Of a stretch of 64,000 bases of DNA, positions 34,558-41,789 are shown one piece after another. The position numbers and the translations under genes were made by a program. Below the pieces are notes generated by a model, which did no database searches, was not told the origin of the DNA, and worked only from the letters and a program-made list of their open reading frames with translations. Numbering within the stretch: the stretch's first letter is position 1; each line of letters starts with the position of its first letter. Source of the stretch: Candidatus Lustribacter sp. (GTDB lineage Bacteria; Vulcanimicrobiota; Vulcanimicrobiia; Vulcanimicrobiales; Vulcanimicrobiaceae); contig OZ255842.1 of assembly GCA_965277805.1 (NCBI GenBank), forward strand, positions 3,200,001-3,264,000, given 5' to 3'.

Positions 34558-35405
34558 CAGCCGGCGCCGTCGAGATGATTGCGCGCTTCTTCGACCGCGC
34601 GCGCCAGCACCGAGCGCAGCTTGCCGTCTTCCATCACGAGCAGCGCGGCGATCGTGCAGCCGGCGGGCGTCGTCACGTCGTCGCGCAACGCGGCCGGATG
34701 ACGATCGTTCTCCTGCACCATCACGGCGGCGCCGAGCACCGTCTGCGCCACCAGCGTCATGGCGACGTCGCGCGGCAAACCGATCCGCACGCCCGCGTCG
34801 GCCAGCGCTTCAATGATGAGGTAAACGTAGGCGGGACCGCTGCCGCTGATTGCGGTGACCGCGTTGAGCTGACGCTCTTCAATCGTGATGCACAACCCGA
34901 CGGCGCCGAAGAGGCGCTCTGCAATCGCGAGGTGCGCCGCCTTCGCGTGGCTGCCGCCGGAGATCGCCGTCATGCCCCGCCCGACGAACGACGGCGTGTT
35001 GGGCATCGCACGCACCACCGGATTCGCCGTGCCGAGCGCCGCCTCGATGCGCGCGATCGAGACGCCGGCCGCTACCGAGATCACGAGCGCCTCGGGCTCC
35101 AGGCCGGCGGCGACGAGTTCGCGCAGCGCCGCCTCGAGCTGGGCCGGCTTCACGGCCAGCAGCAGCACGTCGCTCCCGGCGGTCAGCTCCGCATACGAGG
35201 TGTGCGCCGCAATGCCGAACTCGTTGGCAACCATCTGCGCGGACGCGGCGGATTTGGTCGCGGCCCAGACCGCATCGAGGGGAACGCCGCTACCCAGCAC
35301 GCCCCGCAGGAGCGCGCCGCCCATCGCCCCGGCACCGATAATGCCGAGCCGCGAACCGGGTGCGAGGGCCGCAGCGGGCCCGTCAATCGAGATTTCCACG
35401 ACCAA
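34557..35405 (-). CDS. proC: Pyrroline-5-carboxylate reductase
   Basis: [34 protein letters not shown]. Confidence 0.93.
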
Positions 35406-35522
35406 TTACGGTTCTGGGCGCTCGAGTTGGGTTCCCGGGAAGCAATGACGGCTAGCGGGGAACGCCAGGCTGCACGCCGGAACTCCAACACGGAATTCAG
35501 TTCCGGGAGGACGCCTTTCGTC

Positions 35523-37415
35523 ATGCAAGAGCTGTTCAAACAATACCTCGACCAAAATATCTCGCGGGGCAAACTGCTCCAAGGCCTCGGCGCCGTCGGC
35601 CTGAGCGCTGCAGCGGCGAGCACGATCGCCGAATCGCTGGCGCCGGTGAACGTCAGCGCGGCGACCGCGGCGGGCGCGGTCCGCAACCTGCGCGATACCG
35701 GCGGCACGCTCTTCGTGCAACAGCTCAAGGCCGCGGGCGTGAAGTACTACTTCTTCAACCCGTCGACCGGCGATGCGCCGATCTTCAACGCGATCGCCAA
35801 CGAGCCGAGCATCCAGCTCATCAAGGGCATTCAAGAAGGCGTGGTCATCGCGATGGCCGACGGCTACTCGCGGATGTCGGGCAAGACCGGCGTGTGCACG
35901 ATCGCCAACGTCGGTTTGCCCAACGGCATGACGCAGCTCGTCAACGCCTACAAGGACCGCATACCGCTGCTGCTGGTCATCGCTGCCTTCGGAACGCAGC
36001 AATCGGGCCGCGACGGCCCGCAAGACTACGATCATCAGGAAACGATGCTGCAGCCGCTGACCAAATGGTATTGGATGGCGGAATCGGGCGCCGCCATTCC
36101 GGAGACGACGCGCCGCGCGATGAAGTTCGCCACGACGCCGCCGGGCGGCCCGGTGTTCGTCTCGATTCCCGATGACATCCTCGGCCAGCCCGCCGCCGCC
36201 GACATCTACGACCAGTCGGGCTACGACGTGCCGGTGAAGATTCGCGCCGATGCGTCCGACGTCGAAAAAGTCGCGCGCATGCTGATCGAAGCGAAGAACC
36301 CGCTGCTCTCGGTCGGCGACGAGATCACGATGTGCAACGGCGAGGCCGAAGTGTTGCAGCTGGCCGAACTGCTCGGCTTGCCGGCGGCGGGCGGCGGCGA
36401 ATTCGGCGTTTGGTCGAAACCGTTCCCGACGATGCACCCGCTCTACCTCGGGCCCGTGCTCAAGAACATGAAGTACCCGGGCGACGTCGACGTGCGGCTG
36501 AACATCGGCAACCAGTACGGCGAGGTTTCCGGGCCGAACACGACGCTGATTTCGATACGCCGCGATCCGACGAGCCTCGGCCGCGTGGGTCCGGTCGACA
36601 TGGGGCTCGTGGCCGACAGTAAACTCGCCGCTGCCGATCTCGTTGCGGCGGTGAAGAGCATCGCGACCGCCGATCGTTTGCGTCAGATCGCCGCCGGCCG
36701 TCTCGCGCGCACCAAAGCCTACACCGACGGCATGAAAAAGATGCGCGAAGCAATGCTCACCGGGTTCCCGAGCGCCGACGGCGGGCCGGTAACGCTCGAA
36801 CGGCTGGCGTACGAACTCGAGAACGGGCTCGAGAAAGATACGATCTACGTCAACGACACCGACTCCGGCAAGAAGATGGACGTCTTCATGACCTTCGGCG
36901 CCGGCGGAAAAACTTACGTCGGCAACGGTCCGAACATTCTGGGCTGGGGACTCTCGGCCGGCGCCGGCGCCAAACTTGCGCGGCCGGATTCGCCGGTCGT
37001 CGCGATCCTCGGCGACGGCGCGTTCCTCTTCGGCGGCCCGCAACCGCTGTGGAGTCAAGCCCGCTATAACATTCCGGTCTTGAACATCGTGCTGAACAAC
37101 CGCAGCTACAACAACGAGCGCAACCGCATCTGGACGTTCGTCTCGGGACAGCAATTCAAATCCGGTCTCGACATGACGTGCTACAACGGCTCGCCCGACG
37201 TCGACTTCGTCAAGGCGTCGCAAGCATTCGGCGTCGAGGGCGAGCTGGTGAAAGAGCCGGGCCAGATCAAGGCCGCGATCGCGCGTGGGAAACGCGCGAC
37301 CGCAGAAGGGAGACCGTACTTGCTGGAAGTTCTCATTCAACGAGACGGCGTCGGCGCCGGTTCGACCTGGTATCCGCCGTTCTCCGTTGCGGCGATGCGG
37401 ACGCGCCATGTATAA
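35523..37415 (+). CDS. ThDP-dependent enzyme (benzoylformate decarboxylase/ALS-like) with Tat-like leader
   Basis: GGGAGG RBS; QEGVVIAMADGY with catalytic Glu, GDGAFLFGG...NN ThDP motif. Confidence 0.85.
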   Translation: MQELFKQYLDQNISRGKLLQGLGAVGLSAAAASTIAESLAPVNVSAATAAGAVRNLRDTGGTLFVQQLKAAGVKYYFFNPSTGDAPIFNAIANEPSIQLIKGIQEGVVIAMADGYSRMSGKTGVCTIANVGLPNGMTQLVNAYKDRIPLLLVIAAFGTQQSGRDGPQDYDHQETMLQPLTKWYWMAESGAAIPETTRRAMKFATTPPGGPVFVSIPDDILGQPAAADIYDQSGYDVPVKIRADASDVEKVARMLIEAKNPLLSVGDEITMCNGEAEVLQLAELLGLPAAGGGEFGVWSKPFPTMHPLYLGPVLKNMKYPGDVDVRLNIGNQYGEVSGPNTTLISIRRDPTSLGRVGPVDMGLVADSKLAAADLVAAVKSIATADRLRQIAAGRLARTKAYTDGMKKMREAMLTGFPSADGGPVTLERLAYELENGLEKDTIYVNDTDSGKKMDVFMTFGAGGKTYVGNGPNILGWGLSAGAGAKLARPDSPVVAILGDGAFLFGGPQPLWSQARYNIPVLNIVLNNRSYNNERNRIWTFVSGQQFKSGLDMTCYNGSPDVDFVKASQAFGVEGELVKEPGQIKAAIARGKRATAEGRPYLLEVLIQRDGVGAGSTWYPPFSVAAMRTRHV

Positions 37416-37929
37416 ACCGGCGCTCTTTCTCTTCGCGCTCGTGGCGGCGCTCGGCGCCGCCGCGCTGCCGCTGCGCGCACAGCAAGACAACAACCCGCTG
37501 CCGCCCGGCGACGGCCGCGACATTGTCGCGGTCACCTGTTCGCAATGTCACGGCCTCAATGCACTCACGCAACTGCGCCAAGGCGCGAAGGCGTGGCGCC
37601 ACCAGATCTACGACATGATCGAGCGCGGCGCGCAGGTCTCGCCGAGCGAGATCGACGTGATGGTCAACTATCTCACAACGCACCTCGGTCCGGGCATCCC
37701 GTATCCCGGTCCGTCGCCCGCGCACGTCGATTTGCCCGCCGGCACCGGGGCCGACATCGTGCAGAGCCGGTGCAGTCTCTGTCACGGCGTCGACCGCGTC
37801 GTCGCGACCAAACGCACGCGCGCGCAGTGGACCAGCATCGTGAACCGGATGGTCTACCTCGGCGCCCCGCTCAGCGCCGGCCAGCAAAAAACCGTCCTCG
37901 ATTATCTAAGCACGAATTACAGTAACTAA
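37408..37929 (+). CDS. Secreted di-haem cytochrome c
   Basis: Signal peptide; CSQCH and CSLCH, each followed by W..M (internal duplication). Confidence 0.85.
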   Translation: MYKPALFLFALVAALGAAALPLRAQQDNNPLPPGDGRDIVAVTCSQCHGLNALTQLRQGAKAWRHQIYDMIERGAQVSPSEIDVMVNYLTTHLGPGIPYPGPSPAHVDLPAGTGADIVQSRCSLCHGVDRVVATKRTRAQWTSIVNRMVYLGAPLSAGQQKTVLDYLSTNYSN

Positions 37930-38891
37930 GGCTTCGCTACGCTCGGATCGACGAGCTCGCGCGCCGGGAACGGATGCGCGATGAGTTTGTATTTTGCCGC
38001 GAGATCGATCAGCGGCTGAATCTCCGAGAGGTGCAGCACCGTCCCCAGTTCGGGGCGGTTCGCGTGCTCGATCGTCTCGAGCGTCTGGCCGGTGAACGCG
38101 GCGAGCATCGCGGCGGTTTCGGCATGATGCGCGTTCGTGTACGCGGTCGATTCGGCCACGGTGCGCGCGAAGGCTTGCACGAGATCGGGATGTTTGGCCG
38201 CCCAATCCGACGATGCGAACCAGCCCGAGTACGGAAATTCGGGCGCGACCGCGTCCATGGCGGGCGCAAGAATACGCACGTTGCCCGATGCGAGCGCGGT
38301 AGCCAGCGCCGTGTCGTTCATCAGCGCGGCGTCGACGCGGTGCAGTTCGATCGCCGCTTGCGCGGCGCTGATCGGGATCTCGACGAACTTCAGCGTGCGT
38401 GAATCGCCGCCGTGTTTGTCGACCCAGTTCGAGATGACGAGCGTCGAGAGCGAATCCAGCGCCGGCGTCGCGATCGTTTTGCCGTTGAGATCCTTGCCGC
38501 TGCTCGCCGTCGAGTCGTGCGCGACGACGAGTTCCGAAAACGGCGTCTTGCTGTAGTACGTGCCGGCCGGGGCCAGCAGCGTGAAGCCGACGCCGCGCAC
38601 GTGCGCGCTCATCAGCGTGACGAGGTTGGAAAGGCCGATATCGAACGAGCCGGCCAAGACGGCGGCGGCGATCGCGGCGCCGCTGCCGGCGCGCTCGATC
38701 TGCACGTCGATTCCGGCTTTGGCGAAGAGCCCGGCCTTTTGCGCGTAGAGGATCGGCGTCGCATCGTCGGTCGCGATGGTCTGGATGCGCACGGTTTGCA
38801 GCGGCGCCGCAGCCACGCGGGCCGGCACTGCGGTCAGCGCGACGAGAAGCGCGAGCAAAGCCGCGCTGAGGGAGTTGCCGGCACCGAACAT
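37926..38891 (-). CDS. ABC substrate-binding protein, SsuA/NMT1 family
   Basis: Signal peptide; GLFAKAGIDV, GKDLNGKTIA, HRVDAA. Confidence 0.85.
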   Translation of the reverse strand: MFGAGNSLSAALLALLVALTAVPARVAAAPLQTVRIQTIATDDATPILYAQKAGLFAKAGIDVQIERAGSGAAIAAAVLAGSFDIGLSNLVTLMSAHVRGVGFTLLAPAGTYYSKTPFSELVVAHDSTASSGKDLNGKTIATPALDSLSTLVISNWVDKHGGDSRTLKFVEIPISAAQAAIELHRVDAALMNDTALATALASGNVRILAPAMDAVAPEFPYSGWFASSDWAAKHPDLVQAFARTVAESTAYTNAHHAETAAMLAAFTGQTLETIEHANRPELGTVLHLSEIQPLIDLAAKYKLIAHPFPARELVDPSVAKP

Positions 38892-38904: not shown

Positions 38905-40158
38905 TCACCGCGCCGGGCGGTACCCGTCGGTCAACGTTTGCAAGAAGGCGATGATGTCGAGTTCCTGCTGTGGGCTCAGCGCCGGCGCGGCCCCGGCTTT
39001 ACGGTCGAACGGGGCATCGGCGATGTCGAGATTAGCACGCGCGGACGGCGGCAGATCGTCGGGCGCACCGTGACGGTAGATGCGCTGCGGACGCGTGCTG
39101 CGGAAATCGTAGAAGTCGAGCACCGCTTGCAGCGTGTGATAGACGCCGTTGTGGAAGAACGTGTGACGCGTTGCGACGTTGCGCAAGGTCGGCGTCAGAA
39201 ACATTCCGCAGTACGGCGCAGCACGCTTCATGTCGGTGCGGATCGGACCGCAGATGCCGAGATCGAAGTAGCGTGGATTGCGGTTTGCGGCGAGCGTCAT
39301 GTTCCGCGGCGCACCGAGCGCTTCGAACTGATGGTCGGTGAAGAGCGGCGGCAATCCGTTCGCATCGGGGCGGTCGAGATGACAGGCGGCGCAATTCGCG
39401 CCGTTGGGATCGCGAAAAAGCGTATAGCCGCGCGCTTCTGCCGCCGAGAAGCGCGCCTTGCCCTCGAGCCACGCATCGTATTTGCTCGAGTACGGATGGA
39501 ACGACGGATCCTCGATTTGGTAGCGCGCGACGGCGAACAACGCCTCGCCCACGGCCATGCTGGCGCGATCGAAGATTCGCGGGCCGAACAGCTGCGCGAA
39601 GCGAGCCGCATACGGCGCGCGGCGCAGCTTTTCCGCGACGCGTCCGACGCTGCCGCCGTTCATCTCGAGGGGGTTGAGCACCGGCTCGAGCGCCTGGCTT
39701 TGCAGCGTGTTGACGCGGCCGTCCCAGAACAAGCCGCCCTGCGGCACGAGATTCTGTGCGCTCTGCGCCGTATTCTGCGCGCTCTTCACCGCAAGCGCCG
39801 GCGCGTTCGACGATAGCGGCGAGGGAGTGGCTTCGTTCTCCGCATCATCCGGACCGATGCTGAAGTTCGGCTGCCGTTCGAGATACATCAGCGACGGAAT
39901 GGCGCGCACGCCCGCCGGTACGGCCAAATCGGCGGGCGGACCGTACGCGTGCTGCGGGCTGTGACACGACGCGCACGACAGCGCGCCCGACGATGACAGC
40001 GTCGGATCGAAGAACACAAGCCGGCCCAATTGCGCCATCGCGGACAACGGCGCAACCTCCGGACGCATCAGGCGAACCGGGTGCGGATTGCCCCCGTCCG
40101 GACGCACCGCGCTCAGCGCAACGGCAACGACGCCCGCGAGGGCGAGCGTTCGCGTCAG
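38905..40158 (-). CDS. Di-haem cytochrome c peroxidase/MauG family protein
   Basis: LGRLVFFD, CASCH, FWDGR, CAACH, TPTLRNVA..FFHNG; start uncertain (CTG 40158 or GTG 40107). Confidence 0.85.
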   Translation of the reverse strand: MTRTLALAGVVAVALSAVRPDGGNPHPVRLMRPEVAPLSAMAQLGRLVFFDPTLSSSGALSCASCHSPQHAYGPPADLAVPAGVRAIPSLMYLERQPNFSIGPDDAENEATPSPLSSNAPALAVKSAQNTAQSAQNLVPQGGLFWDGRVNTLQSQALEPVLNPLEMNGGSVGRVAEKLRRAPYAARFAQLFGPRIFDRASMAVGEALFAVARYQIEDPSFHPYSSKYDAWLEGKARFSAAEARGYTLFRDPNGANCAACHLDRPDANGLPPLFTDHQFEALGAPRNMTLAANRNPRYFDLGICGPIRTDMKRAAPYCGMFLTPTLRNVATRHTFFHNGVYHTLQAVLDFYDFRSTRPQRIYRHGAPDDLPPSARANLDIADAPFDRKAGAAPALSPQQELDIIAFLQTLTDGYRPAR

Positions 40159-41789
40159 CGCGCGGCTACCGGAATTCCGGTTCGCGGGCTGAGCAAGAGC
40201 TTCGGCGTGCGTCCGCCGCTACGGAAGTCGAACATATCCATGATCGAACCTGCGCTCGCATCGAACGAACCCCCTCCGAGGCGCTCGCCCTTGAGCCAGT
40301 TGTCCTCGATGAAGCGCACGACCGACGCTTGCGAAATGCGCGCGTGGGAAACGGCGTTGCGTTTCGCCCAGGGCGAGATCACGAGAAACGGAATGCGCGT
40401 GCCGGGTCCGCAGCGGCCGTTCACCGGCTTGCCGTTCACCCCCGGCAGCGCGGGGCCCGATCCGCAGGTGCCCAGCCCGTCGAGTTGATCGGCCTGATCG
40501 TACGACGGGCTCGTCGCTTTTACGGACGCATGGTCGTACCAGCCGTCCGAATCATCCCAAGCCAGAATGATCGCGGTGTCTTTCCATTCCGGCCGTTGTT
40601 CGAGAAAGTTCACGAGCGTGACGATTGCCGTTTGCTCGTCGAGCGGATCGGAGTAGCCCGCGTGGCCATCTTGAAACGCGGGCGCTTTGAGGTATGAGAC
40701 GGCCGGAAAATTACCGGCCTTCACCGCGGCATAGAAATCGTTGAGGTCGTAGTTGTGGTTGGCCGGATCCTTCGTGCCGTCGGGATCGTTCGAGTGCCCG
40801 ATCGCTCGGACCGTCAGCGGACGCGCATGTGTCGAGTTGACCGTCGTCGGGTAGTAAGCGAACCAGTTGTGGTGCGGGATGTAATCCGTGACGAGCGCTG
40901 CAACGGTCGTGGAATAGGTCGCCCGCTTGCAGCCGGTCGTGCCGTTCGGATTCGATGCCGTAAGATCGAAGCCGGCCATGAAGCCGCCCCACGTAATGCC
41001 CGCGTCGTTGAGCAGATCGCCGATGTTCTTCCCAGCCATGAACACATCGTCGGTTTGACTCGAGCACGCATCGGAGGCGGGATCGACGTCGTTGATCATC
41101 GTCAAACCGCCTTGACCATCGTTGACGTAGTACGATGGTGCGGCAACGGTCGCAGGCTCTTTCGTCGTGTCGATGGCGAGCATGCCGTTGGTTTGGCCCG
41201 AGATCACGTTGAGTGCGCCGGGCGTCGAGGGACCGTAGACGTCGGTGTAGGCGTTATCGCTCATCGCATAATGCTGCGCGTATTCCCACAGCGCCATCAC
41301 CGTGTTGCCGTCGAAGTAGCCCATCACTTGACCGCGCGAACCGAACGCGCCCACGCCGCCGCTCGTGCCTTTGCCCGTATATTTCGGAAAGAGATCCGCC
41401 TTGCCGCCATCGGTCGCGAGCTGTTCCGCCGTGTACGCGTGGTTCTGATCGGCGGTGTTTGCCTGGGTCCGGTCGAGGCGGAACGGATTGGCAGCGTCGG
41501 CGCCGTTACCGGTATTCGTCAAATTAGGGTTGTAGCGCAAGAACTTCGCCATGGCTAAGTTGTTGACGGCCGGCGTCCCCGGTGCGGCGCGGAACACGGG
41601 CTCGTCGGGTGGATTGGCGGCCTTCGGATACGTCGCGAAGTAGTGATCGAACGAGACGTTCTCACCGTAGAGAACGACGAGGTGTTTGATCGGCGTCGCG
41701 GTCGAGGATCCCGATTGCGCCGCGAGCGGCACCGATCCCGCTGCGGCAAAAAATGAAAGAACAACGCACAATGCGACGACGCGCTTCAT
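40155..41789 (-). CDS. Secreted phosphoesterase (phospholipase C/AcpA family)
   Basis: PIKHLVV..GENVSFDHYF, GPSTPG, DGHAGYS, WDDSDGWYDH, GPGTRIP. Confidence 0.9.
   Translation of the reverse strand: MKRVVALCVVLSFFAAAGSVPLAAQSGSSTATPIKHLVVLYGENVSFDHYFATYPKAANPPDEPVFRAAPGTPAVNNLAMAKFLRYNPNLTNTGNGADAANPFRLDRTQANTADQNHAYTAEQLATDGGKADLFPKYTGKGTSGGVGAFGSRGQVMGYFDGNTVMALWEYAQHYAMSDNAYTDVYGPSTPGALNVISGQTNGMLAIDTTKEPATVAAPSYYVNDGQGGLTMINDVDPASDACSSQTDDVFMAGKNIGDLLNDAGITWGGFMAGFDLTASNPNGTTGCKRATYSTTVAALVTDYIPHHNWFAYYPTTVNSTHARPLTVRAIGHSNDPDGTKDPANHNYDLNDFYAAVKAGNFPAVSYLKAPAFQDGHAGYSDPLDEQTAIVTLVNFLEQRPEWKDTAIILAWDDSDGWYDHASVKATSPSYDQADQLDGLGTCGSGPALPGVNGKPVNGRCGPGTRIPFLVISPWAKRNAVSHARISQASVVRFIEDNWLKGERLGGGSFDASAGSIMDMFDFRSGGRTPKLLLSPRTGIPVAAR

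Follow-up and report, generated by a model that had tools for sequence, protein, structure and literature searches.

In the genome of Candidatus Lustribacter sp. (GCA_965277805.1; phylum Eremiobacterota, also Vulcanimicrobiota), a gene for a thiamine diphosphate (ThDP)-dependent enzyme that carries an N-terminal leader overlaps a gene for a dihaem cytochrome c with a Sec-type signal. The two lie in the window analysed here, a stretch of 64,000 nucleotides covering positions 3,200,001-3,264,000 of the forward strand of contig OZ255842.1, and their products are referred to as P0001 (the enzyme) and P0002 (the cytochrome). To our knowledge, ThDP enzymes are treated as cytoplasmic, and the known oxidative ones employ flavin adenine dinucleotide (FAD) or iron-sulfur clusters. 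The features of the pair, all on the plus strand and numbered from the start of the window, are as follows.

35523-37415, plus strand: gene for P0001, including the stop codon; a 630-residue ThDP-dependent enzyme with three Pfam TPP domains.
35523-35687, plus strand: leader of P0001, residues 1-55, with a conserved n-region, a Tat-like motif, a weakly hydrophobic h-region and an Ala-rich end.
35562-35579, plus strand: S14-R15-G16-K17-L18-L19, at the position of the twin-arginine motif, where Gly (GGC) replaces the second Arg.
35835-35837, plus strand: codon for E105, the cofactor-activating Glu, nearly invariant in a 58-row alignment and aligned with E47 of benzoylformate decarboxylase (BFDC).
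37011-37100, plus strand: ThDP/Mg-binding motif G497-D498-G499...N525-N526, located in the same 58-row alignment.
37408-37415, plus strand: 8-bp overlap of the two genes, holding the ATG of the cytochrome and the TAA of the enzyme.
37408-37929, plus strand: gene for P0002, a 173-residue dihaem cytochrome c with two SorB-like domains.
37408-37479, plus strand: Sec-type signal peptide of P0002, residues 1-24, ending L-R-A before Q-Q (read by eye from the sequence).
37537-37551, plus strand: first haem-binding motif of P0002, C44-S-Q-C47-H48, invariant in 40 rows and at the predicted interface with P0001.
37771-37785, plus strand: second haem-binding motif, C122-S-L-C125-H126, invariant in the same 40 rows, with its His (H102 in mature numbering) at the predicted interface.

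The frame of P0001 opens with the ATG at 35523, runs for 630 codons and closes with the TAA at 37413-37415. It is part of a longer open frame (34575-37415) that passes antisense through the upstream proC, and the ATG at 35523 is taken as the real start because homologs align from that Met onward. A first-pass annotation, made from the letters of the DNA, had noticed a leader of about 55 residues resembling a degenerate twin-arginine signal, intact ThDP motifs and the 8-bp overlap with a secreted cytochrome bearing two CxxCH motifs. Each of these readings stands: the leader holds S-R-G-K-L-L followed by an uncharged stretch, the GDG...NN motif is invariant apart from the near-invariant G497, and the overlap lies where it was placed. 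A scan of 35300-38200 for promoters and terminators, uninformative at 65% G+C, detected no terminator, and the single promoter-like site that it returned was weak and lay on the wrong strand.

P0001 has the domains of a classical ThDP enzyme, with TPP_enzyme_N at residues 59-172, TPP_enzyme_M at 247-371 and TPP_enzyme_C at 466-603, all above their Pfam cut-offs and preceded by some 55-58 residues that belong to none of them. D498, G499, N525 and N526 are invariant in the alignment, and G497 and E105 nearly so. The PYR-middle-PP order of domains, a motif of the form GDG-X(24-27)-NN and the activating Glu together place the protein in the decarboxylase (POX/ALS/BFDC) superfamily. Its AlphaFold model is of high confidence (pLDDT 91.4, pTM 0.88), and the nearest solved folds, at 22-28% identity, are those of BFDC, 4-hydroxybenzoylformate decarboxylase, the HKA synthase BbmA and benzaldehyde lyase, which are flavin-free, non-oxidative members of the superfamily. 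The closest three (PDB 1bfd, 7orx and 8x3x) superpose with TM scores of 0.86-0.87 on the target at 23-28% identity, give sequence matches of 134-185 bits, and have in common with P0001 the three domains, the activating Glu and the GDG...NN motif. They differ from it in lacking a leader, their alignments beginning at P0001 residues 60-66, which is close to where each of their chains begins, and, unlike P0001 as proposed here, they have no cytochrome partner and are not oxidative. The active site also differs. The catalytic His70 of BFDC corresponds to Ala128, which is invariant in the P0001 family, and His281 to H305 in P0001 itself but to Asn in most of the family. Nor does a curated model claim the protein: the best NCBIfam match, NF006203 (PRK08327, 'thiamine pyrophosphate-requiring protein'), reaches 215 bits against a cut-off of 456, and the benzoylformate decarboxylase model NF005485 reaches 194 bits against 493. 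With these differences, P0001 is, to judge from its sequence, a member of a separate family with its own active site.

P0002 begins with a hydrophobic leader of Sec type (best 12-residue Kyte-Doolittle mean 2.65) and carries two CxxCH motifs behind it; with a match to Cytochrome_CBB3 at 34.2 bits (cut-off 27), it is a c-type cytochrome by both tests. Each half of the protein keeps a CxxCH, a Trp and a Met across 40 aligned mature sequences (the Met of the first half being M46 in mature numbering), a pattern that fits His/Met ligation of both haems. The SorB model NF052246 matches in two stretches, one per half, with 67.9 bits against a cut-off of 93, and the second half resembles SorB of PDB 2blf (chain 2blf_B) in sequence (E 4e-4), a chain that the model of P0002 also matches, weakly, in fold (TM 0.75 on the target). 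Over its whole length the AlphaFold model (pLDDT 92.7) is best matched, although weakly (E 1.7e-3), by the dihaem domain of quinohaemoprotein amine dehydrogenase; the corresponding Pfam family PF09098 scores 22.9 bits, under its cut-off.

The association of the two genes extends far beyond this genome. In a collection of one genome per species (185,579 species), 273 stretches encoding relatives were found, and the comparison was made on 61 loci retained from them. In 60 of these the enzyme is accompanied by a homolog of the cytochrome, directly downstream of the enzyme gene in 59 and 2 kb downstream in one (L008:8032-8454), the sixty-first locus (L006) stopping at a contig edge. Because the cytochrome accompanies the enzyme in 60 of 61 loci of other genomes, the pairing is not a matter of chance. 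Two CxxCH motifs are present in 58 of the 60 cytochromes, the exceptions being one cut by a contig end and one split between frames; the latter is an alphaproteobacterial gene (L061:6069-6501) in which the split over two frames reflects either a frameshift or an assembly error. When open reading frames (ORFs) were clustered over the 61 loci, only the enzyme and cytochrome genes emerged as conserved; three other large clusters proved to be their antisense shadows, and the next real neighbour family occurs in at most 9-10 of the 61.

A physical interaction between the two products is supported by structure prediction. Mature P0001 (residues 56-630) and mature P0002, each with its own alignment, were modelled together in three runs alongside three controls. 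The runs gave ipSAE scores of 0.70, 0.71 and 0.69, and the best of the controls gave 0.00; the mark used for this score is one that 116 of 157 solved complexes attain, as do 2 of 215 mismatched pairs, counts that hold only approximately with the alignments supplied here. At least 90% of contacts are common to the runs, and partner pLDDT is at least 81. The cytochrome contributes to the interface, among other parts, its first CxxCH, the surroundings of its first Met, and the His from its second CxxCH. The parts contributed by the enzyme include a segment of the middle domain (309-318), a helix (400-414) and loops of the PP domain (450-454, 538-549 and 608-616), and many of the residues involved are invariant across the family. 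The models thus support the view that P0001 and P0002 bind each other.

The leader is as characteristic of the family as the cytochrome. All of the close homologs listed (61-96% identity) retain the N-terminal extension, and among 119 homologs of at least 600 residues the motif reads S-R-R (as S-R-R-x-L-M) in 87, R-G in 20, R-A in 6, R-S in 5 and R-H in one. The first-pass annotation had singled out conservation of the arginine pair (RR) and synteny with the cytochrome as the points on which its reading turned; besides the 60 syntenic loci and the 87 homologs already mentioned, RR is found in 46 of 50 ingroup rows from the genome collection and in nearly all of a set of much more distant relatives. 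These are 26 leader-bearing proteins of 606-659 residues, drawn from a library of 50%-identity representatives, that align from the N terminus at 26-44% identity; 25 have a clear R-R-x-F motif, mostly in the form S-R-R-x-F-(L/V/I)-K, and the twenty-sixth has RR at residues 2-3 only. A further 74 listed relatives, of 542-584 residues, have no leader and begin directly at the first domain. Given its presence in the distant long relatives and its absence from the short ones, the leader is, as read from these alignments, an old, conserved signal of twin-arginine type that defines a clade of ThDP enzymes.

Two further properties of the leader deserve mention. In scans of leaders alone, the only models to match, weakly, are those related to twin-arginine translocation (Tat): TIGR01409 is listed for 14 of 26 RR leaders when 60-residue leaders are searched, and the other matches are to the formate dehydrogenase Tat target, the hydrogenase small subunit, Rieske and EfeB models. 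The n-region ahead of the arginine motif, about a dozen residues, is unusually conserved throughout the family, down to approximately 30% identity. AlphaFold models residues 1-40 of P0001 (35523-35640) as three helices with pLDDT of about 85, an unusually confident result for a signal peptide, followed by a linker at residues 41-50 with pLDDT 40. The conserved n-region may serve as the docking point of a chaperone whose gene lies elsewhere; within 4 kb of the 61 loci, no chaperone or other third gene is conserved.

The same architecture occurs repeatedly in the host itself, in which four further pairs of a leader-bearing ThDP enzyme and a cytochrome c, 26-29% identical to P0001 in their enzymes, bring the number of modules to five. 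All four lie outside the window. One (G000:C1:2456964-2459554; L065:1965-4552) encodes a 650-residue ThDP enzyme, 26% identical to P0001, with a canonical D-R-R-A-F-L leader that is the best match to the Tat model in the genome, and its gene overlaps that of a 213-residue dihaem class I cytochrome c by 4 bp (ATGA). Another (G000:C1:1692103-1694438, minus strand; L066:2104-4439) encodes a 652-residue enzyme with a GTG start and the leader G-R-G-G-F-L-K, in which Gly again stands for the second Arg, an R-G retained by its orthologs in three genomes of the genus; a monohaem cytochrome c gene lies 8 bp downstream, followed on the same strand by a gene for an NMT1-type binding protein. The remaining two are adjacent paralogs (G000:C1:1254873-1259220, minus strand) with RR leaders, and directly after each comes an ORF that contains one CxxCH. 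Two paralogs of this second ThDP family of the genome match NF006203 with 257 and 237 bits, below the cut-off of 456. In the genus as a whole, 24 of 27 full-length matches to this second ThDP family have leaders, 19 of them RR, four RG (one orthologous group) and one RK. A CxxCH-containing ORF follows 23 of the 24 leader-bearing genes, the twenty-fourth being at a contig edge, and none of the three leaderless ones. Two ThDP families are therefore found with three types of cytochrome, which favours electron transfer over chance linkage.

Taken together, we regard it as highly probable that members of the P0001 family are ThDP enzymes that are exported and act together with their own cytochromes. 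For the pair in the window, we infer export, electron transfer and the nature of the substrate, and favour, with rather less assurance, a periplasmic dehydrogenase in which a catalytic subunit that uses ThDP is paired with a dihaem cytochrome c of its own. The first-pass annotation had arrived at a possible periplasmic 2-oxoacid/aldehyde:cytochrome c oxidoreductase, a suggestion to which the RR leaders, the synteny and the controlled complex prediction now lend computational support. The cycle we envisage would begin in the cytoplasm, where P0001, if it is a typical Tat cargo, would fold and bind ThDP-Mg before its leader carried it across the membrane by the Tat pathway, a step for which the case is strong across the family and uncertain for the RG copy. 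P0002, with its signal peptide and haem motifs, would be exported by Sec and receive its haems outside, where, as the controlled prediction suggests, the two proteins would bind. By analogy with known ThDP chemistry, the cofactor would add either to an aldehyde or to a 2-oxoacid, the latter then undergoing decarboxylation. The ThDP-bound carbanion/enamine so formed would be oxidised by the nearer haem in two one-electron steps, as the chemistry of PoxB and pyruvate:ferredoxin oxidoreductase suggests, and the acyl-ThDP would be hydrolysed to the carboxylic acid, with electrons leaving through the second haem to the respiratory chain.

As to the substrate, aromatic 2-oxoacids and aldehydes are what the nearest solved relatives use. 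Among the alphaproteobacterial loci, some contain genes for Amidohydro_2 (9 loci), VOC/glyoxalase-fold (9), 2-oxoglutarate-Fe(II) oxygenase (9), VanA-like Rieske oxygenase (5) and molybdenum hydroxylase (4) proteins, neighbourhoods that hint at aromatic catabolism. P0001 is BFDC-like; that it has an aromatic 2-oxoacid or aldehyde as its substrate is nevertheless a tentative proposal, which we would put at well below an even chance.

The leader of P0001 itself departs from the family pattern in that R-G replaces the consecutive arginines of the S/T-R-R-x-F-L-K-like motif. In other respects it remains Tat-like. The motif is followed by a 19-residue uncharged stretch with a Kyte-Doolittle 12-residue maximum of 1.57 (1.46 over all 19 residues), as compared with 1.68-2.05 for three RR leaders of the same host and 2.65 for the Sec leader of P0002, and this h-region has the weak hydrophobicity expected of Tat signals. 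Rerouting of the non-RR clade to Sec was considered and rejected, the median hydrophobicity being 1.58 as against 1.47 for RR leaders and far under that of the Sec leader. The residue that ends the h-region does change, from basic in 74 of 87 RR leaders to acidic in all 32 non-RR leaders.

The history of the replacement can be read from the tree. In a 55-row tree, the five Eremiobacterota copies form a single clade (support 100) nested in the Alphaproteobacteria beside three alphaproteobacterial rows, to which they are 71-73% identical, and the gene for P0001 was thus likely transferred from Alphaproteobacteria into Eremiobacterota, as far as the phylogeny can tell. The four R-G rows among the 50 ingroup rows are all in the Eremiobacterota clade, and all 32 non-RR proteins (RG, RA, RS and RH), P0001 among them, fall in one clade of 36 with support 95. 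Since non-RR leaders are confined to a single clade, loss of the second arginine is placed after the transfer, with the position then drifting among Gly, Ala, Ser and His. Among P0001 and its four Eremiobacterota relatives, the ratio of nonsynonymous to synonymous substitution rates (dN/dS) is 0.045-0.138 for the leader (residues 1-55) and 0.074-0.234 for the rest of the enzyme; for the cytochromes of RG copies it is 0.128-0.310. Leader and cytochrome of the RG copies are still under purifying selection. On these grounds we lean towards P0001, the RG copy, still being exported and working as the family does.

A number of observations weigh against this interpretation. The predicted complex contains a single enzyme chain without ligands and gives no distance between ThDP and haem; ThDP enzymes are dimers, and the site predicted for the cytochrome could be that taken by the dimer partner of the enzyme. 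That P0001 lacks FAD is an extrapolation from its nearest relatives alone. The models for Tat signals give little help: even among the RR leaders of the family, one of 26 passes the TIGR01409 cut-off, and Pfam TAT_signal matches two of 31 family members (E<=0.1), a result that cannot decide the question. TIGR01409 does not list the P0001 leader at E<=10, either in a scan of the genome or with the 60-residue leader as query, and it lists none of four RG leaders. Other leaders of the host retain both arginines, as in all 20 listed with the Tat model (a biased sample, because the model demands RR), in one multicopper oxidase, and, across the genus, in 19 of the 24 leaders of the second ThDP family; the host Tat system therefore probably still reads RR. 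A genetic study is reported, by its title, to have found that the second arginine of a Tat signal is critical in E. coli. A structure from 2026 bears on the same residue: according to the accessible part of its text, E103 of E. coli TatC forms a salt bridge with the second Tat arginine, which packs on Y100 (PMC13323110). The caution expressed in the first-pass annotation, that RG leaves export uncertain, was thus well placed.

The host has what Tat export and cytochrome maturation would need, namely TatC (168 bits; G000:C1:4666207-4666830, in the same genome and outside the window), two TatA proteins (41 and 27 bits) and a cytochrome c assembly/haem-attachment protein, and its leaders include at least 11 that score above the cut-off of the Tat model. 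PhoD was not found in the genome. Of three host multicopper oxidases, one has the RR leader noted above and two have leaders of Sec or lipoprotein type, and two molybdoenzymes have no leader; these are too few to decide whether the Tat substrates of the host keep RR.

The TatC of the host differs from that of E. coli at the positions that hold the second arginine. It was aligned to Aquifex TatC, in which F87, Y93 and E96 correspond by a constant offset to F94, Y100 and E103 of the E. coli protein, and it has Phe, His and Thr there. At the E103 position, 30 TatC loci of the same class have Thr in 26, Ala in one and Val in three (Thr in 22, Ala in one and Val in three of the 26 that remain when four loci from unpublished genomes are excluded). 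The Y100 position is occupied by His, Asn, Ala or Asp in TatC of the Eremiobacterota class (the host and relatives L097-L126). Five alphaproteobacterial genomes with RR copies all have Tyr and Glu at these two positions. The difference in TatC is consistent with the recipient having less need of a second arginine, as far as aligned residues can indicate. Joining these threads gives the most specific form of the proposal: the Eremiobacterota leader would function with a single arginine (R-G/A/S/H) because the host TatC lacks the arginine-reading Glu, ThDP would be a cofactor carried by Tat, and P0001 would be a flavin-free, haem-coupled ThDP dehydrogenase whose enamine is oxidised directly by a c-type haem in the periplasm. 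As a whole, this conjunction is a possibility on which we would not wager.

What, then, might the leader be doing if export had ceased? Loss of the second Arg could have left the enzyme in the cytoplasm, its leader being kept for another role, such as the binding of a chaperone. A precedent exists in NarG of E. coli nitrate reductase A, in which, according to the accessible part of the source, a conserved remnant Tat leader without twin arginines binds NarJ (PMC10609526). The NarG leader resembles that of P0001 in being of Tat type and in having been retained after its arginines were lost; the partners of NarG are all on the cytoplasmic side, whereas that of P0001 is a c-type cytochrome with a Sec-type signal. 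The R-G motif, the want of a Tat hidden Markov model match, the switch from basic to acidic at the end of the h-region, and the conserved n-region with its confidently modelled helices, which would fit a binding epitope, all favour a remnant. However, the cytochrome must mature outside the cytoplasm, and the RG copies keep its signal peptide, both CxxCH motifs and the 8-bp overlap under purifying selection; the conserved chaperone gene that might be expected was not among the neighbours within 4 kb of the 61 loci; and the absence of an E103 equivalent from the host TatC may lessen the importance of the second Arg. We consider a remnant leader unlikely, while giving it serious weight, and retain export of P0001 as the preferred reading.

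If the enzyme is exported, its electrons could nonetheless pass by way of a flavin, as in pyruvate oxidase/PoxB, with FAD in the middle domain accepting two electrons from ThDP and passing them to the haems. P0001 does share its three-domain superfamily with the FAD enzymes, and an FAD protein, glyoxylate carboligase, is among its structural matches, at rank 37. The closest matches in sequence and fold are FAD-free, however, an argument from relatives, and no pyruvate-oxidase model is among the best 25 of 57 NCBIfam matches, so that a flavin intermediary appears improbable. We assign a similarly low likelihood to a variant that is compatible with the preferred reading, in which the leader stays uncleaved and tethers the enzyme to the membrane's outer face, in the manner of Rieske proteins. 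The 19-residue uncharged stretch in the leaders of the P0001 clade and the conservation of the leader, as strong as that of the mature part, would suit an anchor; Ala-x-Ala-like sites after the h-region (e.g. V-S-A at residues 44-46), the disordered linker modelled at residues 41-50 and a hydrophobicity (1.46 over 19 residues) lower than is usual in a membrane helix speak against it. Least probable of all is an exported decarboxylase, lyase or carboligase with a cytochrome that is structural, regulatory or merely co-regulated, as the non-oxidative nature of BFDC, 4-hydroxybenzoylformate decarboxylase, benzaldehyde lyase and BbmA might suggest, given that the pair is kept in 60 of 61 loci while other neighbours change, that the second ThDP family pairs with two other types of cytochrome, that both haem motifs are at the predicted interface, and that the catalytic His70 of BFDC is Ala in P0001.

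The periplasmic dehydrogenase proposed here has partial counterparts among known systems. The nearest in organisation is SorAB, in which SorA is a Tat-exported, cofactor-loaded subunit. This sulfite:cytochrome c oxidoreductase of Starkeya novella (PDB 2blf) is likewise periplasmic and consists of a catalytic subunit and a small dedicated c-type cytochrome, the differences being that its catalytic cofactor is molybdenum rather than ThDP and that P0002, unlike SorB, is a tandem of two SorB-like domains. In chemistry, the parallel is with PoxB/pyruvate oxidase and pyruvate:ferredoxin oxidoreductase, which oxidise a ThDP-bound enamine and deliver the electrons to a redox cofactor, as is proposed for P0001; unlike the exported enzyme proposed here, they are cytoplasmic or located at the inner membrane face and use FAD or [4Fe-4S]. 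We know of no haem c partner or export leader for either. The α subunit of quinohaemoprotein amine dehydrogenase (PDB 1jju and 1jmx) offers a dihaem c module that, as is proposed for P0002, accepts the electrons of a periplasmic dehydrogenase, but this module is fused in a larger subunit, whereas P0002 is a separate mature protein of 149 residues; both matches to it are below cut-offs.

The wider surroundings of the pair are variable. At the Eremiobacterota loci the neighbours are genes for a binding protein, a dihaem cytochrome c peroxidase and a phosphoesterase. The last two are downstream of the pair, at 38905-40107 (minus strand; CCP_MauG) and 40155-41789 (minus strand; phosphoesterase family), and both recur in four Eremiobacterota loci (L001, L002, L005 and L007). 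It is conceivable that the peroxidase is fed by the P0002 cytochrome. The binding protein is of the NMT1/THI5 type, and genes for such proteins adjoin not only P0001/P0002 but also two of the other ThDP-cytochrome modules of the genome. A functional link between module and binding protein was considered and set aside, adjacency being weak evidence because at least 150 such genes are present: these substrate-binding proteins are hugely expanded, with 150 matches scored of 372 candidates. The genome also has 27 matches to ThDP enzymes (E<=1e-10), several of which lie side by side with NMT1/THI5 genes by their coordinates.

A full-text literature search, with subscription journals mostly outside its coverage, found no paper on an exported or cytochrome c-linked ThDP enzyme, and the accessible part of a survey of the Tat pathway (PMC3305326) mentions no exported ThDP enzyme. 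The evidence assembled here points to a periplasmic ThDP enzyme wired to cytochrome c as an undescribed kind of oxidising enzyme. What is new in it is the clade-specific loss of the second Arg after a cross-phylum transfer, the continued selection on leader and partner, the difference in TatC between donor and recipient, and the presence of five modules in one genome. Nor is the module rare, relatives having been found in 273 stretches. The P0001 clade poses the question of whether a Tat leader with one arginine can work where TatC is without a Glu of the E103 type; if it does, signal and receptor would in nature have adapted to each other following the transfer of a gene across phyla. If the proposal is true, ThDP would join the list of cofactors carried as Tat cargo, and the module would be a new type of electron input to respiration, through which bacteria of soil and peat would oxidise 2-oxoacids or aldehydes outside the cell and deliver the electrons straight to the respiratory chain.

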